Virus record (IMG/VR): IMGVR_UViG_3300020045_008535
Location: 1 to 48,532 of that record
Source of the DNA: a virus
Taxonomy: Duplodnaviria; Caudoviricetes
DNA: 48,532 bases
Strand: one strand, 5' to 3'
Each line of letters starts with the position of its first letter. The first letter of the stretch is position 1. Made by a program: the position numbers and the translations under genes. Below the pieces are notes generated by a model. The model had not been told where the DNA came from and ran no database searches. It worked only from the letters and a program-made list of their open reading frames with translations. Below are positions 32,808 to 44,816 of this stretch, in pieces.

Positions 32808-33407
32808 ATGATAACTTTTAATAATGTACGAGAATATAAAGATATACCCTTTGAGCAATACACACGGCTCAAAGGGTTTTCACACAGTTTTTTAAAATCA
32901 GAGATTAACGGTGTGCAACCTGAGTTTATAATGAATGACAAAATTCGTTTGGGTTCAATGGTTGATGCTTTTTTAACGCAACCTGAGGCGGTAGATTTTA
33001 AAAGCCCTTTATTTGAGCAAGCCCGAGCAATTGCAAGTGAGATAAAAAAACATTTTGCATTCGCATTGCCATTGCTTGAACCTCAATTAAGTTACACGGC
33101 TGATATGGTTTACCAAGGTTTAACGATGCCTGTTTGTGGCAGGTTGGATTGGTTGTTGAGAGGCCACGCCGATATTGATTTAAAGGTAACTAATGTTAAA
33201 ACAGATGCGCAATTTAAAGCGATCATCGACCACATGGGTTACAATAACCAACAATGGAATTACGCACGCATGGCGGGAGTTAAAAAGGCTTATATTTTAC
33301 CGTACTCAGTACCTTTAAAAAAGTGTTTGGGGTTGGTTGAGGTGCCTGTTGGTGATAGTAATGTTTTTTGGGTTGATAAAATTAAACGTTTTGGTTCCGT
33401 AATATGA
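32808..33407 (+). CDS. PD-(D/E)XK exonuclease (RecE/DUF3799-like)
   Basis: SHSFLK, LGSMVD, GRLDW...IDLKVT, Y..Q..NY. Confidence 0.82.
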   Translation: MITFNNVREYKDIPFEQYTRLKGFSHSFLKSEINGVQPEFIMNDKIRLGSMVDAFLTQPEAVDFKSPLFEQARAIASEIKKHFAFALPLLEPQLSYTADMVYQGLTMPVCGRLDWLLRGHADIDLKVTNVKTDAQFKAIIDHMGYNNQQWNYARMAGVKKAYILPYSVPLKKCLGLVEVPVGDSNVFWVDKIKRFGSVI

Positions 33408-34891
33408 TTGAGTTAAGACAATACCAAGTTAACGGCGTACAACTTGCGTCCGAGGGTTTCAGGCAACACAAGCGCCAAATATTTGTATTACCAACAGGAG
33501 GCGGGAAAACGGTTATATTTAGCGATATAGCATACAAGGCAGTCAACAAAGGAAAAACAGTATTGGTGTTAACAGACCGTGTTGAGTTATTTAAACAAGC
33601 AAGCACGGCGTTAGGACGAAATAATATACCTATTTGTAAAATAAATGCCGATAGTAAAATATTGCATAAGGATGCAAAACTTTTTGTTGGTATGGTTGAA
33701 ACTGTTGCAAGGCGGTTGGCTCAGTTACAAGATATTGTTTTTGATTTAATAATTATTGATGAGTGCCATAAAGGAAACTTCTTTAAAATTATTGATGCAT
33801 TTCCTGATTATAATGTTTTGGGTTTTACGGCAACACCAAAAAACAAACACTTGCATAAATATTACACCAATTTAATTGATGTAATTGGTATTGATAAACT
33901 AATTGAACAAGGGTATCTTGCGCCGTGTCACCCGTTCCAAATGGAGGACGATTTCTCGGACGTTAAGCTGCAAAAAAGCGGCGACGATTATAATGAGCAA
34001 CAATTATTTTTGCATTACAATAAATCGAAGCTTTACGCAGGAGTTGTTGAGGAATATTTGAAAAGATGCGCAGGAAGTAAAACGTTAGTATTTAATGTAA
34101 ATATTGAGCATAGCGATACAATGGCTCGTGCGTTTACTGCTGCGGGAATACCCTCTTTTTCAATTACCTCAAAAACAAAAGATTTTGATCGTGTAAAAAT
34201 ATTAGAGGGTTTTAGTCGTGGCGATTTCCCCGTACTCAATAACTGCGGTATATTAACAACGGGTTACGATGAGCCGTCAATTGAAACAATTATTGTAAAC
34301 AGAAAAACGGCCTCTTTGCCATTATGGTTACAAATGTGCGGGCGTGGCGGTAGGATTTACCCTGGCAAGCCTTATTTTACATTATTGGATTTTGGTAAAA
34401 ACCACGATGAACATGGCTTGTGGGATGAGCCTCGTGTATGGAAATTAGAGGAACCAAAAAAGAAACGTAAGGGCGGCATTGGTGCAGCACCATTAAAAAG
34501 TTGTAAGCAATGCAAGGCCGTCATCCCGTTAATGGCTGCCAAGTGCGTTTATTGTGGTTATGTGTACGACATGGCCGATATGGTTTTAAAAGAGGGTGTT
34601 TTAAAAGAGGTTAAAGCAATGCCACGCATACCCGAGCAATTAGTCGACAGGTTTATAGGCGATTTCAGTTTACAGGAGTTGAAAAACCTACAAGAGGCAA
34701 AGCAACACACGGCGCAACTTATATGGCGTGTTGTGCGCTCTAAAGGTGTGGAGGCCGTTAAAGAGTATGCAAAAATGATGGATTACAAATATGGTTGGAT
34801 TATGTCGCAAGTTGCCGATATTGAAAAGGCAAAAGAGGCTAATAAAAAGATTGAATTCACAAATTATAAAATAAAACAGGTTATTAAATAA
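33404..34891 (+). CDS. SF2 DEAH-type helicase (RadD/YejH-like) with zinc finger
   Basis: LPTGGGKT, DECH, TATP, QMCGRGGR, CKQC...CVYC. Confidence 0.93.
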   Translation: MIELRQYQVNGVQLASEGFRQHKRQIFVLPTGGGKTVIFSDIAYKAVNKGKTVLVLTDRVELFKQASTALGRNNIPICKINADSKILHKDAKLFVGMVETVARRLAQLQDIVFDLIIIDECHKGNFFKIIDAFPDYNVLGFTATPKNKHLHKYYTNLIDVIGIDKLIEQGYLAPCHPFQMEDDFSDVKLQKSGDDYNEQQLFLHYNKSKLYAGVVEEYLKRCAGSKTLVFNVNIEHSDTMARAFTAAGIPSFSITSKTKDFDRVKILEGFSRGDFPVLNNCGILTTGYDEPSIETIIVNRKTASLPLWLQMCGRGGRIYPGKPYFTLLDFGKNHDEHGLWDEPRVWKLEEPKKKRKGGIGAAPLKSCKQCKAVIPLMAAKCVYCGYVYDMADMVLKEGVLKEVKAMPRIPEQLVDRFIGDFSLQELKNLQEAKQHTAQLIWRVVRSKGVEAVKEYAKMMDYKYGWIMSQVADIEKAKEANKKIEFTNYKIKQVIK

Positions 34892-34927
34892 AATTATTCA
34901 CATTGATTTACAACACTTTACAAATAT

Positions 34928-35026
34928 TTGTGGATAATTGTGGCAATTTGTGGTGAATTAATTTGTGGGTAATGAAATAATATGTAATTTTACACCATAA
35001 ACATTAACAATTTAAAAACTTACCAC
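34928..35026 (+). promoter_or_regulatory. early promoter 2 (phased TTGTGG boxes, AAACTTACCAC leader)
   Basis: TTGTGG at 34928, 34938, 34948 and 34963. Confidence 0.75.
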
Positions 35027-35424: not shown

Positions 35425-35943
35425 ATGAAAAACATTCCAAACTTCAGCACATTTGCATTAACTAACAAAGACCAAAACGTTGTAAACGTTGTAACGGGTA
35501 AAGTTAAAAGTCCTAAAACTGGCACAAACAAATATCAATTGTTTGATGATAACAAAAAAAGCCATACGTTAACAATTGAGCAAATTAAAGGGTTAATTGC
35601 TGCCTCTGAAAACAAAACAAAAAAAACTGAGGTAGTTAAGCCCGCAGCAAAAGAAAAGGCTGTACAGGTTACAAAAACAACTAAAGCAGCCGTTAAAACT
35701 CCTGAGGGCGAAGAGAAAATATCTAAAAAAGACCAAATTTTGGCACTTTACAAAGATGGGAAAACTCCTGCCGAGATTGAAGAGGCAACAGGTATTAAAG
35801 CAAACACGGCATTTGTCGTAATTAAAATTCATAGAATTATGAGTTTACACGCCAAAGGAAAAACACCTGCCGAGATCGCAGAAAAAACAGGTTACAAGGT
35901 TGATTCAGTTAAATGGCAAATTGAGAAAAGCGGTGGAAGATAA
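35425..35943 (+). CDS. DNA-binding protein: NUMOD4-like N-terminus plus two tandem HTH repeats
   Basis: GKTPAEIEEATGIK and GKTPAEIAEKTGYK. Confidence 0.7.
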   Translation: MKNIPNFSTFALTNKDQNVVNVVTGKVKSPKTGTNKYQLFDDNKKSHTLTIEQIKGLIAASENKTKKTEVVKPAAKEKAVQVTKTTKAAVKTPEGEEKISKKDQILALYKDGKTPAEIEEATGIKANTAFVVIKIHRIMSLHAKGKTPAEIAEKTGYKVDSVKWQIEKSGGR

Positions 35944-36850
35944 AGACCTATTTGGAGACCCAATATTAAAGAATGTATTACTCCGTGAAAAATTTATGGA
36001 ACCGCCTTTTAGTATTTTAGATACTAAAGGCGGTGGGTGGCAAAACAGAAAACGCCAATGGAAAACATTAGGAATTCAATCAGAGATTGGCCGTAGTGGA
36101 AAACTCTTGGCGGGTGGCTCAGGTAACACCGAGGAACAAGACCAAAAAATGTCGGATAAATATGGCCGTAAAATAAAAAATGGATCAGGTATTTTTGACA
36201 ATGCAACAAGTATTTTTGATCCCGCACTCTGCGAATTGATGTACTATTGGTTTTGTCCCGATGGCGGTAAAATATTAGACCCTTTCTCGGGCGGCTCAGT
36301 AAGAGGCATTGTCGCCAATTACCTTGGTTTTAAATACTCAGGTGTTGACATTAGACAAGAGCAAATTGATAGCAACAGAGAACAAGCGTTGGCAATTTTG
36401 GAGGTAAATAACCAACCGCAATGGTATGTTGGTGACTCAAATGAGGTTTTAAAAGATTTTGAGCCAAATAGTTTTGAGATGGTTTTTAGTTGCCCACCTT
36501 ATGCAGATTTAGAGGTTTATAGTGACTTGCCTGGCGATATTAGTAATAAAAAATATCATGAGTTTGTTCAGATATACGCTGAGATTATTGAAAAGTCTTG
36601 CCGTTTATTGAAAAGCGGAGGTTATGCAATTTTCGTTGTTGGCGATGTACGTGATAAAAAAACAGGCTATTATTATGATTTTATAAGCGATACAAAAAAA
36701 GCTTTTATAAAAGCGGGTGTTGGTTTATATAATGAGGCTATTTTATTACAGCCGTTAGGTACTGCAATGCTAAGAGCAACAAAGATTTTTTCCTCAGGTG
36801 GCAAATTAATTAAAGTACATGAAAACATTTTAATATTCAAAAAACCATGA
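35933..36850 (+). CDS. amino-DNA-methyltransferase-fold enzyme (CPPY variant)
   Basis: ILDPFSGGS motif I, GVDIR, FSCPPY motif IV, HENILIF; GTG 35933 is the likely start. Confidence 0.85.
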   Translation: MEDKDLFGDPILKNVLLREKFMEPPFSILDTKGGGWQNRKRQWKTLGIQSEIGRSGKLLAGGSGNTEEQDQKMSDKYGRKIKNGSGIFDNATSIFDPALCELMYYWFCPDGGKILDPFSGGSVRGIVANYLGFKYSGVDIRQEQIDSNREQALAILEVNNQPQWYVGDSNEVLKDFEPNSFEMVFSCPPYADLEVYSDLPGDISNKKYHEFVQIYAEIIEKSCRLLKSGGYAIFVVGDVRDKKTGYYYDFISDTKKAFIKAGVGLYNEAILLQPLGTAMLRATKIFSSGGKLIKVHENILIFKKP

Positions 36851-37539
36851 CAAACATTGTTGTAAATGAGTATAAGGGGATAAAAGTTTTGCGTGATGAT
36901 TTACTTACTGGCGGAACAAAAAGCCAATTGTTAAAAGAGTTTGTAAATGATGATAAAAGGTATGTTTATGCGACTCCTGTTTACGGTGGATTTCAAATTG
37001 CTTTATCTGCAACAATTGGCAGCCGTGCCGTTATCTTTTGCGCAAAGCGTGCCGTTAAACACCCAAACACTTTATTGTGTATTGAGAACGGCGCAACAGT
37101 TATTGAGGTTGAACACGGTTATTTAAGTGTTGTTGAAAAAGCTGCAAAATTATATTGCGAGGCAAACAAAGATGCTGTTAAATTAGAGTTTGGAGCAAAA
37201 ACAGATTATTTTAAAACTATTTTAAAACATCGTGTTACCGAGGTAATAAAAACAATTGGTGGCGAACCATCTGAAATATGGTGTGCAATAGGAAGTGGAA
37301 TGTTAGTTGAATGTATTTTGGAGGCAACAAATAATTGTGAGGTTCACGGTGTACAAGTTGGCAAGGATTACAACAACGACAACAAGCGATTAACTATACA
37401 TAAATACCATAAAAAATTTGAGCAAAACAGTAATTTTTATGTTGAGTTTAATAGTACGCCTAACTATGATAGAAAAGCGTTAGAGTATTGTTTTAAATTC
37501 AAAAAGACTGACAATGTTCTTTTTTGGAACGTTATGTAA
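36847..37539 (+). CDS. fold-type-II PLP-dependent enzyme (ACC deaminase / Cys synthase-like)
   Basis: LRDDLLTGGTK (PLP Lys), IWCAIGSG phosphate loop, YDRKA, LFWNV. Confidence 0.8.
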   Translation: MTNIVVNEYKGIKVLRDDLLTGGTKSQLLKEFVNDDKRYVYATPVYGGFQIALSATIGSRAVIFCAKRAVKHPNTLLCIENGATVIEVEHGYLSVVEKAAKLYCEANKDAVKLEFGAKTDYFKTILKHRVTEVIKTIGGEPSEIWCAIGSGMLVECILEATNNCEVHGVQVGKDYNNDNKRLTIHKYHKKFEQNSNFYVEFNSTPNYDRKALEYCFKFKKTDNVLFWNVM

Positions 37540-37545
37540 TATTGC

Positions 37546-37663
37546 TATATTTGTTTAACACAGGTGCATTCTGTGAGGGGTTACTAAGGGAACTAAACGA
37601 AACACACATTTACCTTTTGGGTTAGTAGTCATGCACGGCGAACGCCCCAAAAGGTTTTTTATT
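37546..37663 (+). promoter_or_regulatory. promoter plus structured leader / attenuator upstream of primase
   Basis: TATATTTG 37546-53; stem ACCTTTTGGG/CCCAAAAGGT plus T tract; alternative pairings present. Confidence 0.6.
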
Positions 37664-37674
37664 TTCTAATATAT

Positions 37675-39915
37675 ATGCCTAATAATATATCGTTTTATAA
37701 TAGCCTACCCGCAAAAGGGCAACCGCAATTGTCGTCGGGAACTATGTCGATTAGTGACTTTCTATGGGCTATTAAAGCAGGTAAATGGCGCCAAGAGGTT
37801 GAGGCAATAAGGGCAACAGAGGATAAGGATAAAAGGAATGCTTTAAAAAAACGCTTGGTTTCATTTACAATTAGCGGCGTTTTTAATGAACGAAAAGAGG
37901 CAAATTTAATTGAGCACTCAGGTTTTATATGCATCGATATTGATAATTATACCGATAAGTCACACATTGAAACCGATCCATATACATACGCCTCAGCTTA
38001 TAGCGCATCTGGTAACGGGTTTTTTGTAATTGTAAAAATTGAGTCAAAAAAACATAAAGAGTCTTTTGGTTGGCTTAGGAAGTATTATTATGAAACTTAT
38101 GGAATTGTTGTTGATAATGCACCGCAAAATGTAGCCTCTTTAAGGTATGCGAGTTATGACCCAAACTTTGAGATAAATGAAAAATCAAAAGTATCAAAAA
38201 CATTAGCCAAAGAGTTTAAAAAACAAAAGGGAGGTTTGCCAATTGTTGTTACGGGGGAAAGAGTTGAGGAATATGTTAACGAGGCTTATGCTCGAGGCAT
38301 TAGTATTGCTGAGGGATACGATGAGTACTTAAATTTAAGTTTTGCTCTTGCAAATGGTTTTGGTGAAAATGGAAGAAGTTATTTCCATAAGTTGGCCTCA
38401 ATTTCTCCAAAGTATAAAAAGCAACAGGCCGACCGACAATTTGATATTGCCTTGGCTCGTAATATGCCAGGCATTACAGTTGGAACGTTTTGGTATATGC
38501 TCAAAATGGGCGGCATTAATATTAAAGCAGAAGACAATAACGCTGTTGTTGTTGCCGCAATGGGTAAAAAAGCGGGTAAAACTCAGGAGGTATTAGTTAA
38601 CCAATTAGTTACCGTTAACCATATACCTGAGCAACAGGCAAAACAACTTGTGCAACAAGTTTATGAGCGTGAAGATATTAGTTTGCAGACGATCGCATAC
38701 GATCCCGAGAAGTTAATCGAAACCCTAAAACAGTTTATTGAATCAAACCATTCCTTGCGCCGTAACTCAATTACAAAAATTATTGAGGACAATGGCAAGG
38801 AATGGAGCGACGAGAAAATGAACACAATGTTTATTAAAGCCCGTGCAGTTTTCAATTCCCCAAGCGTTACGCATGACCTTTGCCAACGGATGATACACTC
38901 GGAATTTACGCCCGATTTTAACCCTATTACTGAGTATATAGAAAAAAACAGGTGGCGCAATAGCACGGGAAATATAGATAAATTGTGCGCAAGCATTACA
39001 AGCAATACACCGTTAAAAGATATTTTTATACGTAAATGGTGTTTAAGTATTTTGGCAGCTTATAACGGTATTGCTGTGCGGTCTGTGTTAACCTTGGTTG
39101 GTGGGCAGCGCTCAGGTAAAACGCAATGGTTTCGCCGATTGCTGCCTAAGGACTTGAAACGTTATTACGGTGAAAGTAAATTGGATGCTGGTAAGGATGA
39201 TTATTTGCTAATGTGTACAAAGTTAATTTTAATGAACGATGAGTTTGGCGGTAAATCAAAACATGATGAAAAATTATTTAAAGAATTAACCTCAAAAGAA
39301 GTTTTCTCATTACGTGCGCCATACGGTAGAAACAACGCCGATTATTATCGTTTGGCATTGTTGGCAGGTACATCAAACGACTTGGATATTATGCAAGACC
39401 CAACGGGAAACACCCGTGTACTTCCTGTTGAGGTCATAAAAATAGACCATAAGGCTTACAATGAAATTGATAAAGATGAATTATTTATGGAGTTGGTTAG
39501 GGCTTACGAGGCGGGCGAAGATTGGGATTTTACAAATGATGAGTTTGAGGGTTTAGCAAATTTAAGTAAGGATTACGAGGGTATTAATTACGAAAGAGAG
39601 TGTATTTTACAACACTTTGAGGAAAGCAATGAGGTTGGTGGTATTGTTGAGGAAATGACTGCGGTACAAATAAAGGATTACATTGAAACAAACGGTAGGC
39701 AGCAACTTCGCAATTTAAAGGCACTAGGTATGCAATTGCGTATATTGTACGGAGCCAATAAAATGAAACGTGGATCAGGAAAGGTTTATAAAGTAATTAA
39801 GCGTAACTCAAGTCACTCAACTGTTGTCGGCCATAATAGTCCAATAATTACAGAGGCACCAACACAACCAACAAATGATATTGTCCGTAATGACATGGAT
39901 GATTTACCTTTTTAA
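37675..39915 (+). CDS. primase-helicase (BT4734/VirE N-terminus, PriCT-2, VirE/VapE ATPase)
   Basis: HSGFICIDID, SASGNG, SYDP, GGQRSGKT, NDEF, RAPYGR, DPTGNTR. Confidence 0.9.
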   Translation: MPNNISFYNSLPAKGQPQLSSGTMSISDFLWAIKAGKWRQEVEAIRATEDKDKRNALKKRLVSFTISGVFNERKEANLIEHSGFICIDIDNYTDKSHIETDPYTYASAYSASGNGFFVIVKIESKKHKESFGWLRKYYYETYGIVVDNAPQNVASLRYASYDPNFEINEKSKVSKTLAKEFKKQKGGLPIVVTGERVEEYVNEAYARGISIAEGYDEYLNLSFALANGFGENGRSYFHKLASISPKYKKQQADRQFDIALARNMPGITVGTFWYMLKMGGINIKAEDNNAVVVAAMGKKAGKTQEVLVNQLVTVNHIPEQQAKQLVQQVYEREDISLQTIAYDPEKLIETLKQFIESNHSLRRNSITKIIEDNGKEWSDEKMNTMFIKARAVFNSPSVTHDLCQRMIHSEFTPDFNPITEYIEKNRWRNSTGNIDKLCASITSNTPLKDIFIRKWCLSILAAYNGIAVRSVLTLVGGQRSGKTQWFRRLLPKDLKRYYGESKLDAGKDDYLLMCTKLILMNDEFGGKSKHDEKLFKELTSKEVFSLRAPYGRNNADYYRLALLAGTSNDLDIMQDPTGNTRVLPVEVIKIDHKAYNEIDKDELFMELVRAYEAGEDWDFTNDEFEGLANLSKDYEGINYERECILQHFEESNEVGGIVEEMTAVQIKDYIETNGRQQLRNLKALGMQLRILYGANKMKRGSGKVYKVIKRNSSHSTVVGHNSPIITEAPTQPTNDIVRNDMDDLPF

Positions 39916-39926
39916 AATTTAAAAAA

Positions 39927-40925
39927 ATGAATGTTTTAAGTTTATTTAATGGCATGAACACAGGCCGTCAAGCGTTGGAGAATTTAGGGTTTAAAATTGA
40001 TAAATATTATTCAAGTGAAATAAAACCGTATGCAATTAAATTAACTCAACACCATTTCCCTGACACAATACAGGTTGGCGATATTAATAATTGGCAAAGT
40101 TGGGATATTGATTGGAAAAAAGTTGATTTTGTACTTAGCGGTTCCCCTTGTCAGGATTTAAGTGGTGCAGGAAACAGGGCAGGAATAACAGGTGTAAAAA
40201 GTAGTTTATTTTATGTGTTTATTGAAATATATGAGCATATTAAAAAATTAAACCCTAACGTTTTATTTTTTCAGGAAAATGTTGGAAGTGCCTCCAAAAA
40301 AGACATTGGCATAATGAGTCGAGCGTTAGGAGTTTATCCGTGCCGTATTTGTTCATCTCTTTTAACAGCTCAGTTACGTGACCGTTATTACTGGACAAAT
40401 ATTAAAACAAAAGAAACTTTTTTTGATATTGTTACAGACATACCACAGCCAAGGGATAGAGGCATTTTATTAAAAGATGTAATTGAACACGGTTATGTTG
40501 TTAGGGATAAGTCAAGGGCTATTTTAGAAAGCGAGGGTCGTATAAATACAAATATGGATTTGATGCACAAACGTTATAAAATAACAGGTTTTGGAAATGT
40601 AGTTTATCAATTAAATCCATCTAAAGAAAGCGGAGGATTTCAGCCATATCAAAACAATAGAGTTTATTCAGATAATGGAAAATCTAGTTGTTTAACTGAG
40701 CAACAAGGCGGAAGATTTAAAATAGGATTTGAATATAATGGTGAATTTAAAGTAAGGCCATTAACAAAGGTTGAGTTGTGCCGCCTGCAAGGGTTTCCCG
40801 ATGATTATTGCGATATATTAACCCGTAAAGAGGCGGCAAGTTTGTTGGGTGATGGGTGGACTTTGCCTGTAATTGAGCATATTTTTAGTTTTATAGATAA
40901 AAATAATTGCACTAATAATCAGTAA
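39927..40925 (+). CDS. DNA (cytosine-5) methyltransferase
   Basis: LSLFNG, GSPCQDLS, QENV, QLRDRYYW, RLQGFPDDY, LGDGW. Confidence 0.93.
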   Translation: MNVLSLFNGMNTGRQALENLGFKIDKYYSSEIKPYAIKLTQHHFPDTIQVGDINNWQSWDIDWKKVDFVLSGSPCQDLSGAGNRAGITGVKSSLFYVFIEIYEHIKKLNPNVLFFQENVGSASKKDIGIMSRALGVYPCRICSSLLTAQLRDRYYWTNIKTKETFFDIVTDIPQPRDRGILLKDVIEHGYVVRDKSRAILESEGRINTNMDLMHKRYKITGFGNVVYQLNPSKESGGFQPYQNNRVYSDNGKSSCLTEQQGGRFKIGFEYNGEFKVRPLTKVELCRLQGFPDDYCDILTRKEAASLLGDGWTLPVIEHIFSFIDKNNCTNNQ

Positions 40926-43294: not shown

Positions 43295-44472
43295 AATATA
43301 GTGCAGGCCAACAAGAGTTTCTAACTGCTGTACTGAGCGGGGAAAGCGTTTACCTTGACGGCAAAGCAGGCACAGGCAAGTCCTTTATTGTTAAAGAGGC
43401 CATCCGTAAATTGCAACTCTTGCGTAAAAAAGTTGTTGCCCTTGCGCCAACAGGTATTGCAGCAAATAACGTTGGAGGACAAACAATACATTCATTATTT
43501 AATATTAACCCTTTTGGAATACTTGAGTTTAAGGATTGTAATTTTTTAAGAGGCGAACGCCGCCGTTTATTAACTGAAATAGATACAATTTTTATTGATG
43601 AAGTTTCAATGTTACGCCCCGATTTATTGGATGCAATTCATTGGACGTTAATTAAAAACGGTTCCCCAGGGTTGCAGCACAAACAAATTATTTTTGTTGG
43701 CGATATCAAACAGTTACCCGCACCGTTGGATGATAATGCTCGTTCTATTTTATACCGCACCTATGAGGGCGAAGAGTTTTACAACGCAATTGTGTTTAAG
43801 CAACAATTAAAAGTGCGCAACATTGAATTGGTGGACATATTACGCCAAAGCGATACAGAGTTTATTGATGCGTTAAATGTTGTGAGAGAGGGCGGCAAGG
43901 CTGATTATTTTAAACAGTTTGTTACTCAAACACCTCGTGGCATTGTATTGGCGCCACACAATGCAACTGTTGACCGTTACAACCAAATAGGCCTTGAGAG
44001 TTTACAAACTGAGTTGTTTGAGTTTACGGCAAAAGTAGATGGCAATGTAAAAGCCGAGGACTTTAATTTGGAAACCGTTGTACGTGTTAAGCCAGGCGCA
44101 AAAATTATGTATTTGGTTAACTCAAAAAACAACCCTCTTTGTAATGGTACAATTGGCGTATTTAAAAACCGTGCGGGCTTATTTTTTATTGAGGTTGATG
44201 GTATTGATTACGCATTAGAGCGTGTTGAGATTACAAAAAAACAATATGTATTAAATAAGATTACAAACGATTTAGAGTTGCAGGAAATTGGCTCAATTAC
44301 TCAGTTTCCAATCCGTTTGGCTTATGCCCTCAGCATACACAAAAGCCAAGGTTTAACGTTTGATGAGGTGACAGTTGATTTAACTCGTCCGTGTTTCCAA
44401 CGTGGGCAACAATATGTGGCGCTAAGCAGAGTAACAGCGCCAAAGGGTTTAACTATAATTGTAAACAGATGA
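43279..44472 (+). CDS. Pif1/RecD-like SF1B helicase
   Basis: GKAGTGKS, APTGIAA, IDEVSM, GDIKQLP, AYALSIHKSQGLT, YVALSR. Confidence 0.93.
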   Translation: MVSEIKYSAGQQEFLTAVLSGESVYLDGKAGTGKSFIVKEAIRKLQLLRKKVVALAPTGIAANNVGGQTIHSLFNINPFGILEFKDCNFLRGERRRLLTEIDTIFIDEVSMLRPDLLDAIHWTLIKNGSPGLQHKQIIFVGDIKQLPAPLDDNARSILYRTYEGEEFYNAIVFKQQLKVRNIELVDILRQSDTEFIDALNVVREGGKADYFKQFVTQTPRGIVLAPHNATVDRYNQIGLESLQTELFEFTAKVDGNVKAEDFNLETVVRVKPGAKIMYLVNSKNNPLCNGTIGVFKNRAGLFFIEVDGIDYALERVEITKKQYVLNKITNDLELQEIGSITQFPIRLAYALSIHKSQGLTFDEVTVDLTRPCFQRGQQYVALSRVTAPKGLTIIVNR

Positions 44473-44816
44473 GAAAAGAAATTGAAGGACACCCCAATTA
44501 TATTGTTTCCTCTGTTGGGTATGTTATTAAAAAGAGTACAGGCAAACGCATGGCAACAACGTTAACTGAGGATGGTTATGTTATTGTTAGGATTACACAA
44601 AATAATAAAATAAAACGTTTACGCCTACATCGTTTAGTTGCCTTGCACTTTGTGCCTAACCCTGAGAACAAACCCGAGGTTAACCACAAGGACGGCAACA
44701 AATTAAATTGCAGAGCCACAAACTGCGAATGGAATACGAGGCAAGAGAATGCAAAACACGCACAGGAAACAGGGCTTTACACATTTAGAAGAAAAAAGAA
44801 AAAAGTAAAAAAATGA
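44469..44816 (+). CDS. NUMOD4-HNH endonuclease
   Basis: HRLVALHFVPNPENKPEVNHKDGNKLN...N.EW.T..EN..H. Confidence 0.9.
   Translation: MRKEIEGHPNYIVSSVGYVIKKSTGKRMATTLTEDGYVIVRITQNNKIKRLRLHRLVALHFVPNPENKPEVNHKDGNKLNCRATNCEWNTRQENAKHAQETGLYTFRRKKKKVKK

Follow-up and report, generated by a model that had tools for sequence, protein, structure and literature searches.

A methyltransferase-fold protein and a pyridoxal phosphate enzyme form a widespread viral gene pair that may modify DNA

The IMG/VR virus record IMGVR_UViG_3300020045_008535 (Duplodnaviria; Caudoviricetes) was analyzed over its whole length of 48,532 nucleotides (nt), hereafter called the window. It is a linear virus record, 93% complete and 35% G+C, in which tail sheath, baseplate and head genes are present. 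In its replication block, between a helicase gene (33404-34891) and a primase-helicase gene (37675-39915), three successive open reading frames (ORFs) lie on the plus strand: 35425-35943 for a protein with helix-turn-helix (HTH)-like repeats, 35900-36850 for a protein with the fold of an S-adenosylmethionine (SAM)-dependent amino-methyltransferase (MTase), and 36847-37539 for a pyridoxal 5'-phosphate (PLP) enzyme. The MTase gene more likely starts at the GTG at 35933 than at 35900, because its homologues begin at the DLFG segment; an overlap of 11 nt with the HTH stop remains under this start. The MTase stop and the PLP start overlap in the ATGA at 36847-36850 (plus strand). An initial annotation, made from the sequence alone, had proposed that all three genes form a DNA hypermodification system; the overlapping genes, the shared ATGA and the four motifs it described are all present at their positions. 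We report here that the MTase and PLP genes are a real, widespread and uncharacterized two-enzyme module, and we consider what it may do to DNA.

The MTase-fold protein (35933-36850, plus strand; 305 amino acids [aa] when translated from the likely GTG) has a match along its length to phrog_12517 (1e-84) and further matches to phrog_498 (6e-68) and Pfam N6_N4_Mtase (7e-10), and its motifs follow the order I then IV. The canonical motifs of amino-MTases are FxGxG for motif I and (D/N/S)PP(Y/F/W) for motif IV, and their PPY pocket receives the base amine (PMC7544214, accessible part). Sequence alignment places a variant motif I, DPFSGGSVRG, at 36278-36307 and a variant motif IV, CPPY followed by an invariant LExY, at 36491-36520 (CPPY at 36491-36502), both on the plus strand; DPFSGGS and CPPY had both been correctly noted before. 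Within FSGGSVRG, which does not fit FxGxG, the F, the GG and the VRG are invariant in 56 sequences. The arginine of this motif, Arg124, is thus invariant in the family, whereas the solved beta-class relative 2ZIE, a putative methylase and the best solved sequence match, has a threonine there (FAGTGTTL where the family reads FxGGSVRG). The same arginine is found in most members of a sister family, named here GWGGR after its motif I. CPPY, which departs from (D/N/S)PP(Y/F/W), is present in 64/64 classified MTase rows, and the sister family has SPPY. The AlphaFold model (mean predicted local distance difference test [pLDDT] score, 82) has a class I Rossmann SAM-binding fold. In some related loci (L044, L137-L140 and L143) the MTase is split, one ORF encoding its N-terminal PPF..W..RK..W segment and another the catalytic part, and in five of these the PLP gene lies between the two ORFs. 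Two loci, L096:1472-4807 and L121:2422-4831, each hold two MTase paralogues, and those of L121 flank the PLP gene.

The downstream gene (36847-37539, plus strand) encodes a minimal fold-type-II PLP enzyme of 230 aa, which belongs to the family of phage M6 gp52 and phage ViI gp226 (phrog_7093, 5e-22; the Pfam PALP match, 5e-5, is under the cut-off) and is a predicted DNA-adduct decarboxylase. Both of the fold-type-II motifs pointed out in the initial annotation are confirmed, RDDLLTGGTK at 36892-36921 and CAIGSG at 37282-37299, and the AlphaFold model (pLDDT 93) matches fold-type-II enzymes in a structure search; the protein combines this fold with a predicted Schiff-base lysine and a glycine-rich phosphate loop. 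The predicted Schiff-base residue, Lys25 (36919-36921, plus strand), is invariant in 50 sequences and aligns with a lysine in M6 gp52, ViI gp226 and five of six cellular PALP enzymes. A YDxK motif at 37465-37476 (plus strand) is shared with M6 gp52 (YDLK) and ViI gp226 (YExK). Of 32 viral rows, among them gp52 and gp226, 31 have Y207, 31 have K210 and 29 have W227. The PLP profile matches M6 gp52 over 212 columns with an HH probability of 97.6 (E 3e-12); identity to gp52 is about 19%, and pairwise BLAST gives no significant match.

A quick tree of 38 rows separated the viral PLP enzymes, together with one cellular enzyme from a Chitinophaga genome, from the five other cellular PALP enzymes, with a Shimodaira-Hasegawa-like approximate likelihood ratio test (SH-aLRT) value of 98. 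In this tree gp52 is sister to the window's PLP clade (SH-aLRT 82), and AlanGrant gp2, an MTase-linked enzyme, forms a group with ViI gp226 (SH-aLRT 94), so that MTase-linked PLP enzymes fall on both sides of the tree, among the two assayed decarboxylases. The profile match to gp52 and the single tree group with gp52 and gp226 bear out the earlier view that the enzyme is kin to the ViI/M6 type. According to the accessible part of PMC8989533, M6 gp52 and ViI gp226 decarboxylate amino acids attached to DNA and require a free alpha-amine. Its placement among these two assayed members suggests that the window's enzyme likely decarboxylates an amino-acid adduct on DNA as well. Relatives of the PLP enzyme that are 37-54% identical occur on giant-virus-like contigs (L020, L022-L027, L030, L034, L037 and L041; four GVMAG bins), several of them near a GWGGR/SPPY MTase or a ribonucleotide reductase-like gene.

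How often the two genes occur together was surveyed from two PLP seeds. The window's PLP gene recovered 42 viral loci, with the same MTase less than 500 nt away in 29, a divergent MTase in 6, none in 6 and a short flank in 1. The PLP domain of Erythrobacter phage ZS04 recovered 48 loci, of which 33 have the MTase within 500 nt, 1 at 530 nt, 5 a divergent MTase and 1 none, with short flanks in 8. Over both seeds, the 90 viral loci divide into 62 with the MTase within 500 nt, 1 at 530 nt, 11 with a divergent GWGGR/SPPY-type MTase, 7 with none and 9 with short flanks; dereplication at 90% identity reduced them to 53 (core MTase 36, divergent 7, none 7, short 3). All 5 Bacteroidota genome loci have the pair, and a locus in Chitinophaga jiangningensis DSM 27406 carries it. 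The MTase itself is present in only 39 of 50,697 phage records, yet in 3/3 records matched by the PLP enzyme, and we conclude that the pairing is far beyond chance. In 21/29 linked loci of the window-PLP-seeded set, the nearest PLP start codon lies -4 to +2 nt from the MTase stop. The divergent partner, seen in giant-virus-like loci, large-phage loci and Staphylococcus phage Alsa_1, carries motif I GWGxR (one without the arginine) and motif IV SPPYxxxExY, the ExY and mostly the arginine being common with the core family. The pair is carried by the cultured phages ZS04, R6L, Pam4, Mae-JY30, AlanGrant and Vincenzo, as adjacent genes in Mae-JY30 and AlanGrant. Paired genes adjoin replication or packaging genes, and fusions to ParB-like domains occur. 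The C5 methylase gene at 39927 and the primase gene, considered as further members, are not linked to the pair in related loci.

The two proteins also occur fused. In ZS04 and in Pseudanabaena phage Pam4, a single ORF consists of an N-terminal extension, the motif I half of the MTase, a whole PLP domain and the motif IV half, and R6L gives the same split match; such insertion of the PLP domain into the MTase occurs in 5/48 ZS04-seeded loci. A profile search, which superseded an insensitive word search for longer proteins (1 match), found 2,083 PLP relatives at 50% clustering. The fusion census covered 33 PLP proteins of at least 330 aa, 32 from the best 150 matches plus P0121. Among these, this MTase is the partner in 14 (PLP domain inserted in 11, end-fused in 3) and a divergent MTase in 3. 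Other partners are another N6_N4-type domain (1), a PCIF1-like domain (1; P0260), YunG-like domains (5, all weak matches; P0144, P0150, P0202, P0214 and P0215) and DUF3102 (2; P0213 and P0239), and 7 proteins have no second family; in all, 5 of the 33 are fused to amino-MTases of other types. It is possible that the YunG-like, DUF3102 and PCIF1-like domains are other installers or targeting modules. The initial annotation had named lack of linkage in other genomes as an outcome that would speak against it; the survey found the two genes linked, and fused, in other genomes.

In ViI and M6, PLP enzymes of this family serve thymidine hypermodification, whose other genes the window seems to lack. 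We scanned for them with PHROG on 61 + 6 ORFs, with Pfam, with tblastn using six M6 proteins (best E 0.04) and with an ADDT family search. The scanned ORFs gave no thymidylate-synthase family match that would indicate a deoxyuridine monophosphate (dUMP) hydroxymethylase, and tblastn with M6 gp58 reached E 0.037 over 31 aa at best. For the 5-hydroxymethyldeoxyuridine (5-hmdU) DNA kinase, there was no match to M6 gp54 at E 1 and none to HMUDK. The amino acid:DNA transferase (AADT; family ADDT, PF18724) was absent from the record in a search that found it in M6 but missed Montesquieu's annotated AADT. The absence of all three enzymes, as initially annotated, is thus upheld by these searches of a 93%-complete record in which many ORFs are without an assigned family. 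ADDT was found in 0/14 pair-bearing records, and the MTase in 0/2 AADT phages (M6 and Montesquieu). Judged from these gene contents, the pair is not a member of the thymidine hypermodification system.

From these observations we infer a scheme for both chemical steps, their order, the target, the base and the function. The two enzymes would act in sequence on replicated phage DNA. In the first step the MTase-fold protein, a predicted aminocarboxypropyl transferase, would transfer SAM's 3-amino-3-carboxypropyl (ACP) arm, not methyl, to a base amine (+101 Da) with release of methylthioadenosine. The DNA would then bear an amino acid whose alpha-amine is free, the type of substrate that gp52 and gp226 require. 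In the second step the PLP enzyme would remove CO2 to give a positively charged aminopropyl base (net +57 Da). Phages with the transferase only would stop at the ACP base, which would account for lone MTases. The mark would likely be limited to particular sequences and would likely protect against restriction. ACP transfer followed by decarboxylation appears to be the simplest way to join the two proteins, because an enzyme that decarboxylates DNA adducts requires DNA that carries an amino acid, and its partner is a SAM-binding protein with a PPY pocket. The target base could be A, C or G, since the sequence kin of the MTase are N4C/N6A methylases and its top fold matches are guanine-N2 tRNA methylases. 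The motif I loop probably holds the SAM carboxylate, and the arginine of motif I could reposition it. We give ACP transfer to a base amine with subsequent decarboxylation a probability of roughly 45%; that an aminopropyl product arises by either order, including a route through decarboxylated SAM, we consider rather probable.

The scheme would extend beyond the window. Members of the family come from phages of Bacteroidota, Alphaproteobacteria, cyanobacteria, mycobacteria and Firmicutes and from giant viruses. We tentatively suggest that viral "DNA methylases" with the motif I arginine and C/SPPYxxxExY are DNA ACP transferases and, where they occur with a gp52-like PLP enzyme, lead to aminopropyl bases; by the same tentative claim, this family-wide route would draw on SAM only and need no pre-modified nucleotide.

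The dependence of the two genes on each other is one-way. In 80 MTase-seeded loci, the PLP gene is present in 16, absent in 49 with at least 1 kb on both flanks, and its absence coincides with a short flank in 15. It is present in at least 7 of 39 cultured-phage MTase records. A whole-record search found it in 0/25 lone-MTase records, 8 of them at least 90% complete, a search without a positive control that distant PLP genes may escape, as the local PLP profile misses AlanGrant gp2. Nor does any substitute partner recur among 1,146 neighbor ORFs of lone MTases; clustering brought out only replication and packaging genes. CPPY, proposed initially as a sign of PLP partnership, fails as a marker of linkage and instead marks the whole MTase family: it is present in 27/27 PLP-linked and 37/37 PLP-less rows, and the motif I arginine is likewise invariant in both sets. 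No catalytic residue separates the 27 from the 37; the sole differences flagged in both directions were L113/V and F297/M (numbered from 35900), and they may reflect ancestry, because linkage clusters on the quick MTase tree. Since the PLP gene is missing from most MTase loci and records, no substitute partner appears and the motifs are invariant regardless of linkage, the MTase, to judge from these sequence comparisons, works alone, with the PLP enzyme as an add-on.

Such a distribution could also mean that the MTase is an ordinary orphan N4-methylcytosine or N6-methyladenine methylase and that the PLP enzyme does unrelated work, its substrate being a free amino acid, SAM-cycle metabolites or the adduct of an unrecognized enzyme. 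The 64/80 MTase loci counted without a PLP gene (15 of them short-flanked) fit this explanation, as do the 7/53 PLP relatives with no MTase in the locus, the many window ORFs without a family, the single substitution between CPPY and SPPY, and the putative methylase 2ZIE as best solved sequence match. It leaves unexplained, however, the insertion inside the Rossmann domain, the start/stop coupling in 21/29 loci and the pairing with several MTase families; moreover, L038 and L019, two PLP loci with no neighboring MTase, carry one of these MTase types at another place in the contig, in a contig-wide search that covered 5 of the 13 PLP loci lacking the core MTase. We regard a plain methylase with an unrelated PLP neighbor as unlikely.

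The variety of fusion partners bears on the order of the two steps. Independent, repeated switches to ACP transfer in several partner families would not be parsimonious, and the variety is more easily explained by a PLP enzyme that makes a cofactor or by one that serves varied installers. In the reverse order, the PLP enzyme would decarboxylate SAM, which itself has a free alpha-amino acid, and the MTase-fold enzyme would transfer aminopropyl from decarboxylated SAM as spermidine synthase does. One cofactor-making enzyme could then serve several MTase families, and the PLP insertion beside the SAM-binding half would suit channeling. Aminopropyltransferases exclude the SAM carboxylate by an acidic residue at a motif I position. 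The motif I found here has no acidic residue but an invariant arginine, and lone MTases would depend on decarboxylated SAM from the host. The characterized PLP relatives, besides, act on DNA-bound adducts (PMC8989533, accessible part), although decarboxylated SAM is among the options for MccD/MccE too (PMC10491745, accessible part). This reverse order strikes us as distinctly improbable.

The fold comparisons raise the further question of whether another adduct or target is involved. The top fold matches of the MTase model are Trm11, TrmN and Trm14, which are tRNA N2-methylguanine methylases (Z 18.6-19.3), and most fold-type-II enzymes in the PLP structure search are beta-eliminating or beta-replacing. 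PLP beta-replacement or elimination, or an ACP transfer of the Mur24 kind, in each case preceded or followed by methylation by the MTase, would be consistent with these matches, as would guanine N2, RNA or protein as the target. Beta-class DNA MTases are circularly permuted, which would be expected to lower their rank in sequential structure alignments, and the genes have replication or packaging genes around them and are fused to ParB-like domains, which argues against these other targets. PLP-dependent ACP transfer exists (Mur24), and PPY motifs also occur in protein methylases (PMC7544214, accessible part); yet the only assayed members of the PLP family, as described in the accessible part of PMC8989533, are decarboxylases. 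We think a different adduct or target unlikely.

Further points join the lone MTases, the indifference of CPPY and the catalytic residues to linkage, and the varied fusion partners in weighing against ACP transfer followed by decarboxylation. In the MTase fold search, MccD ranks 21st (Z 16.3, root mean square deviation 4.5, 189 aligned) amid generic class I MTases, so that comparison of the predicted model gives no ACP-transferase signal. We found no assayed member of the MTase family in the open literature, and all members are annotated as methylases, so the ACP claim must cover a large family. The branch of gp52 in the PLP tree is long, and the 14 records of the ADDT search, which missed Montesquieu's annotated AADT, had been chosen for having the pair. 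The composition of the window bears on function: CCGG occurs 0 times versus 141 expected and CGCG 4 versus 137 expected over the whole window, in which AGCT, CCAG/CTGG and GGCC are likewise depleted. This depletion could reflect avoidance of restriction or, alternatively, decay where the sites belong to the separate C5 methylase encoded at 39927-40925, downstream of the primase-helicase gene. The avoidance of CCGG and CGCG means that any protection is not global and suggests a site-limited mark.

The HTH gene (35425-35943, plus strand) is a local neighbor outside the conserved module. Its two HTH-like repeats are real, yet all nine Pfam matches are under the cut-off. Proposed initially as a third component of the system, the protein matched none of 45 related loci by tblastn (0/45) and had no relative in a viral scan; the gene adjoins the MTase only in near-identical strains (the contigs of X1 and X6). 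Because it matched none of the 45 loci, the module comprises two genes, not three. The hypermodification reading of the initial annotation is thus partly supported: in its linkage and fusion, in the kinship to gp52 and gp226 and in the failure to find the usual thymidine pathway, but not in the role given to the HTH protein or in CPPY as a sign of partnership. The N-terminus of the HTH protein, encoded at 35425-35630, resembles NUMOD4 domains of HNH endonucleases, a lead with atlas scores of <0.8, and a NUMOD4-HNH gene lies at 44391-44816 of the window.

The host of the phage is likely a member of the Bacteroidota, because Bacteroidota account for each of the five genome-borne sequences closest to the PLP gene (5/5). 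Two intergenic segments near the pair have features of their own. After the helicase gene, an AT-rich gap (34894-34970) contains repeated TTTGTGG and two 9-mers, at 34894-34902 (plus) and 34929-34937 (minus), which we take to be DnaA-box-like; the 9-mer is not enriched genome-wide (6 versus 12.8 expected). Directly before the primase start, a hairpin-like CCTTTTGGG...CCCCAAAAGG with a T run behind it lies at 37610-37665, preceded by TATATTTG at 37546; Rfam gave no match for the hairpin-like segment, and promoter and terminator scans gave chance-level results only.

In the open literature, to which our search was confined, we found no description of the MTase-PLP pair, nor of a DNA base bearing an ACP or aminopropyl group. 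The accessible part of the R6L paper names the fusion a CcrM-like methylase without mention of the PLP domain (PMC5463345), and the AlanGrant note leaves these genes unmentioned (PMC4472886). There is no CPPY, GGSVRG or GWGGR protein in the accessible part of the supplement of Hiraoka et al. (PMC8919816), and nothing on the pair in that of PMC10853773. The MetaGPA table, in its accessible part, counts PALP on 2 versus 453 and N6_N4_Mtase on 8 versus 1391 contigs, showing no enrichment among restriction-resistant contigs for families that are too broad for the question (PMC8670742). If the proposed chemistry is true, the DNA base would be new, as would the reaction for a fold read as "methylase"; many phage annotations would be wrong, and the presence of a DNA-adduct decarboxylase in viruses without a thymidine pathway would be explained. 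A one- or two-gene enzyme that places a free amine on DNA from ordinary SAM would then also be a useful labeling tool.

The pair can be compared with four known systems. With M6 gp52 and ViI gp226, the window's PLP enzyme has in common the fold type II, the aligned lysine, the C-terminal YD/ExK and FW motifs and, for gp52, a full-length profile match; it differs in its low identity to gp52 (about 19%) and in having an MTase-fold partner in place of the dUMP hydroxymethylase, kinase and AADT, which were not found in the window. Orphan phage N4C/N6A MTases (N6_N4_Mtase; 2ZIE, PvuII) are like the window's MTase in their class I Rossmann fold, PPY motif IV and DPFxG motif I, whereas the latter has the order I-IV rather than IV-I, FxGGSVRG rather than FxGxG, C for D/N/S, the LExY and a PLP partner or insert. 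A precedent for a phage DNA "methylase" that moves a larger group is CmoX, from Synechococcus phage S-B43, a phage enzyme with a DNA-methyltransferase fold that uses an active-site arginine for this transfer, the group serving as a handle for a second enzyme; unlike the pair described here, it has a C5-cytosine fold, transfers carboxymethyl from carboxy-SAM (Cx-SAM) and is followed by glycine ligation, with no PLP enzyme mentioned in the accessible part of the paper (PMC12783734). The closest parallel in logic is MccD and MccE, an MTase-fold ACP transferase and a PLP decarboxylase for which the accessible part of PMC10491745 describes a proposed route of ACP transfer and then decarboxylation to aminopropyl on microcin C. 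Their substrate is a peptide-nucleotide phosphate and not a DNA base, and MccD is only a generic fold match of the window's MTase (Z 16.3). If our inference holds, the MTase-PLP module would work on DNA as MccD and MccE are proposed to work on microcin C.

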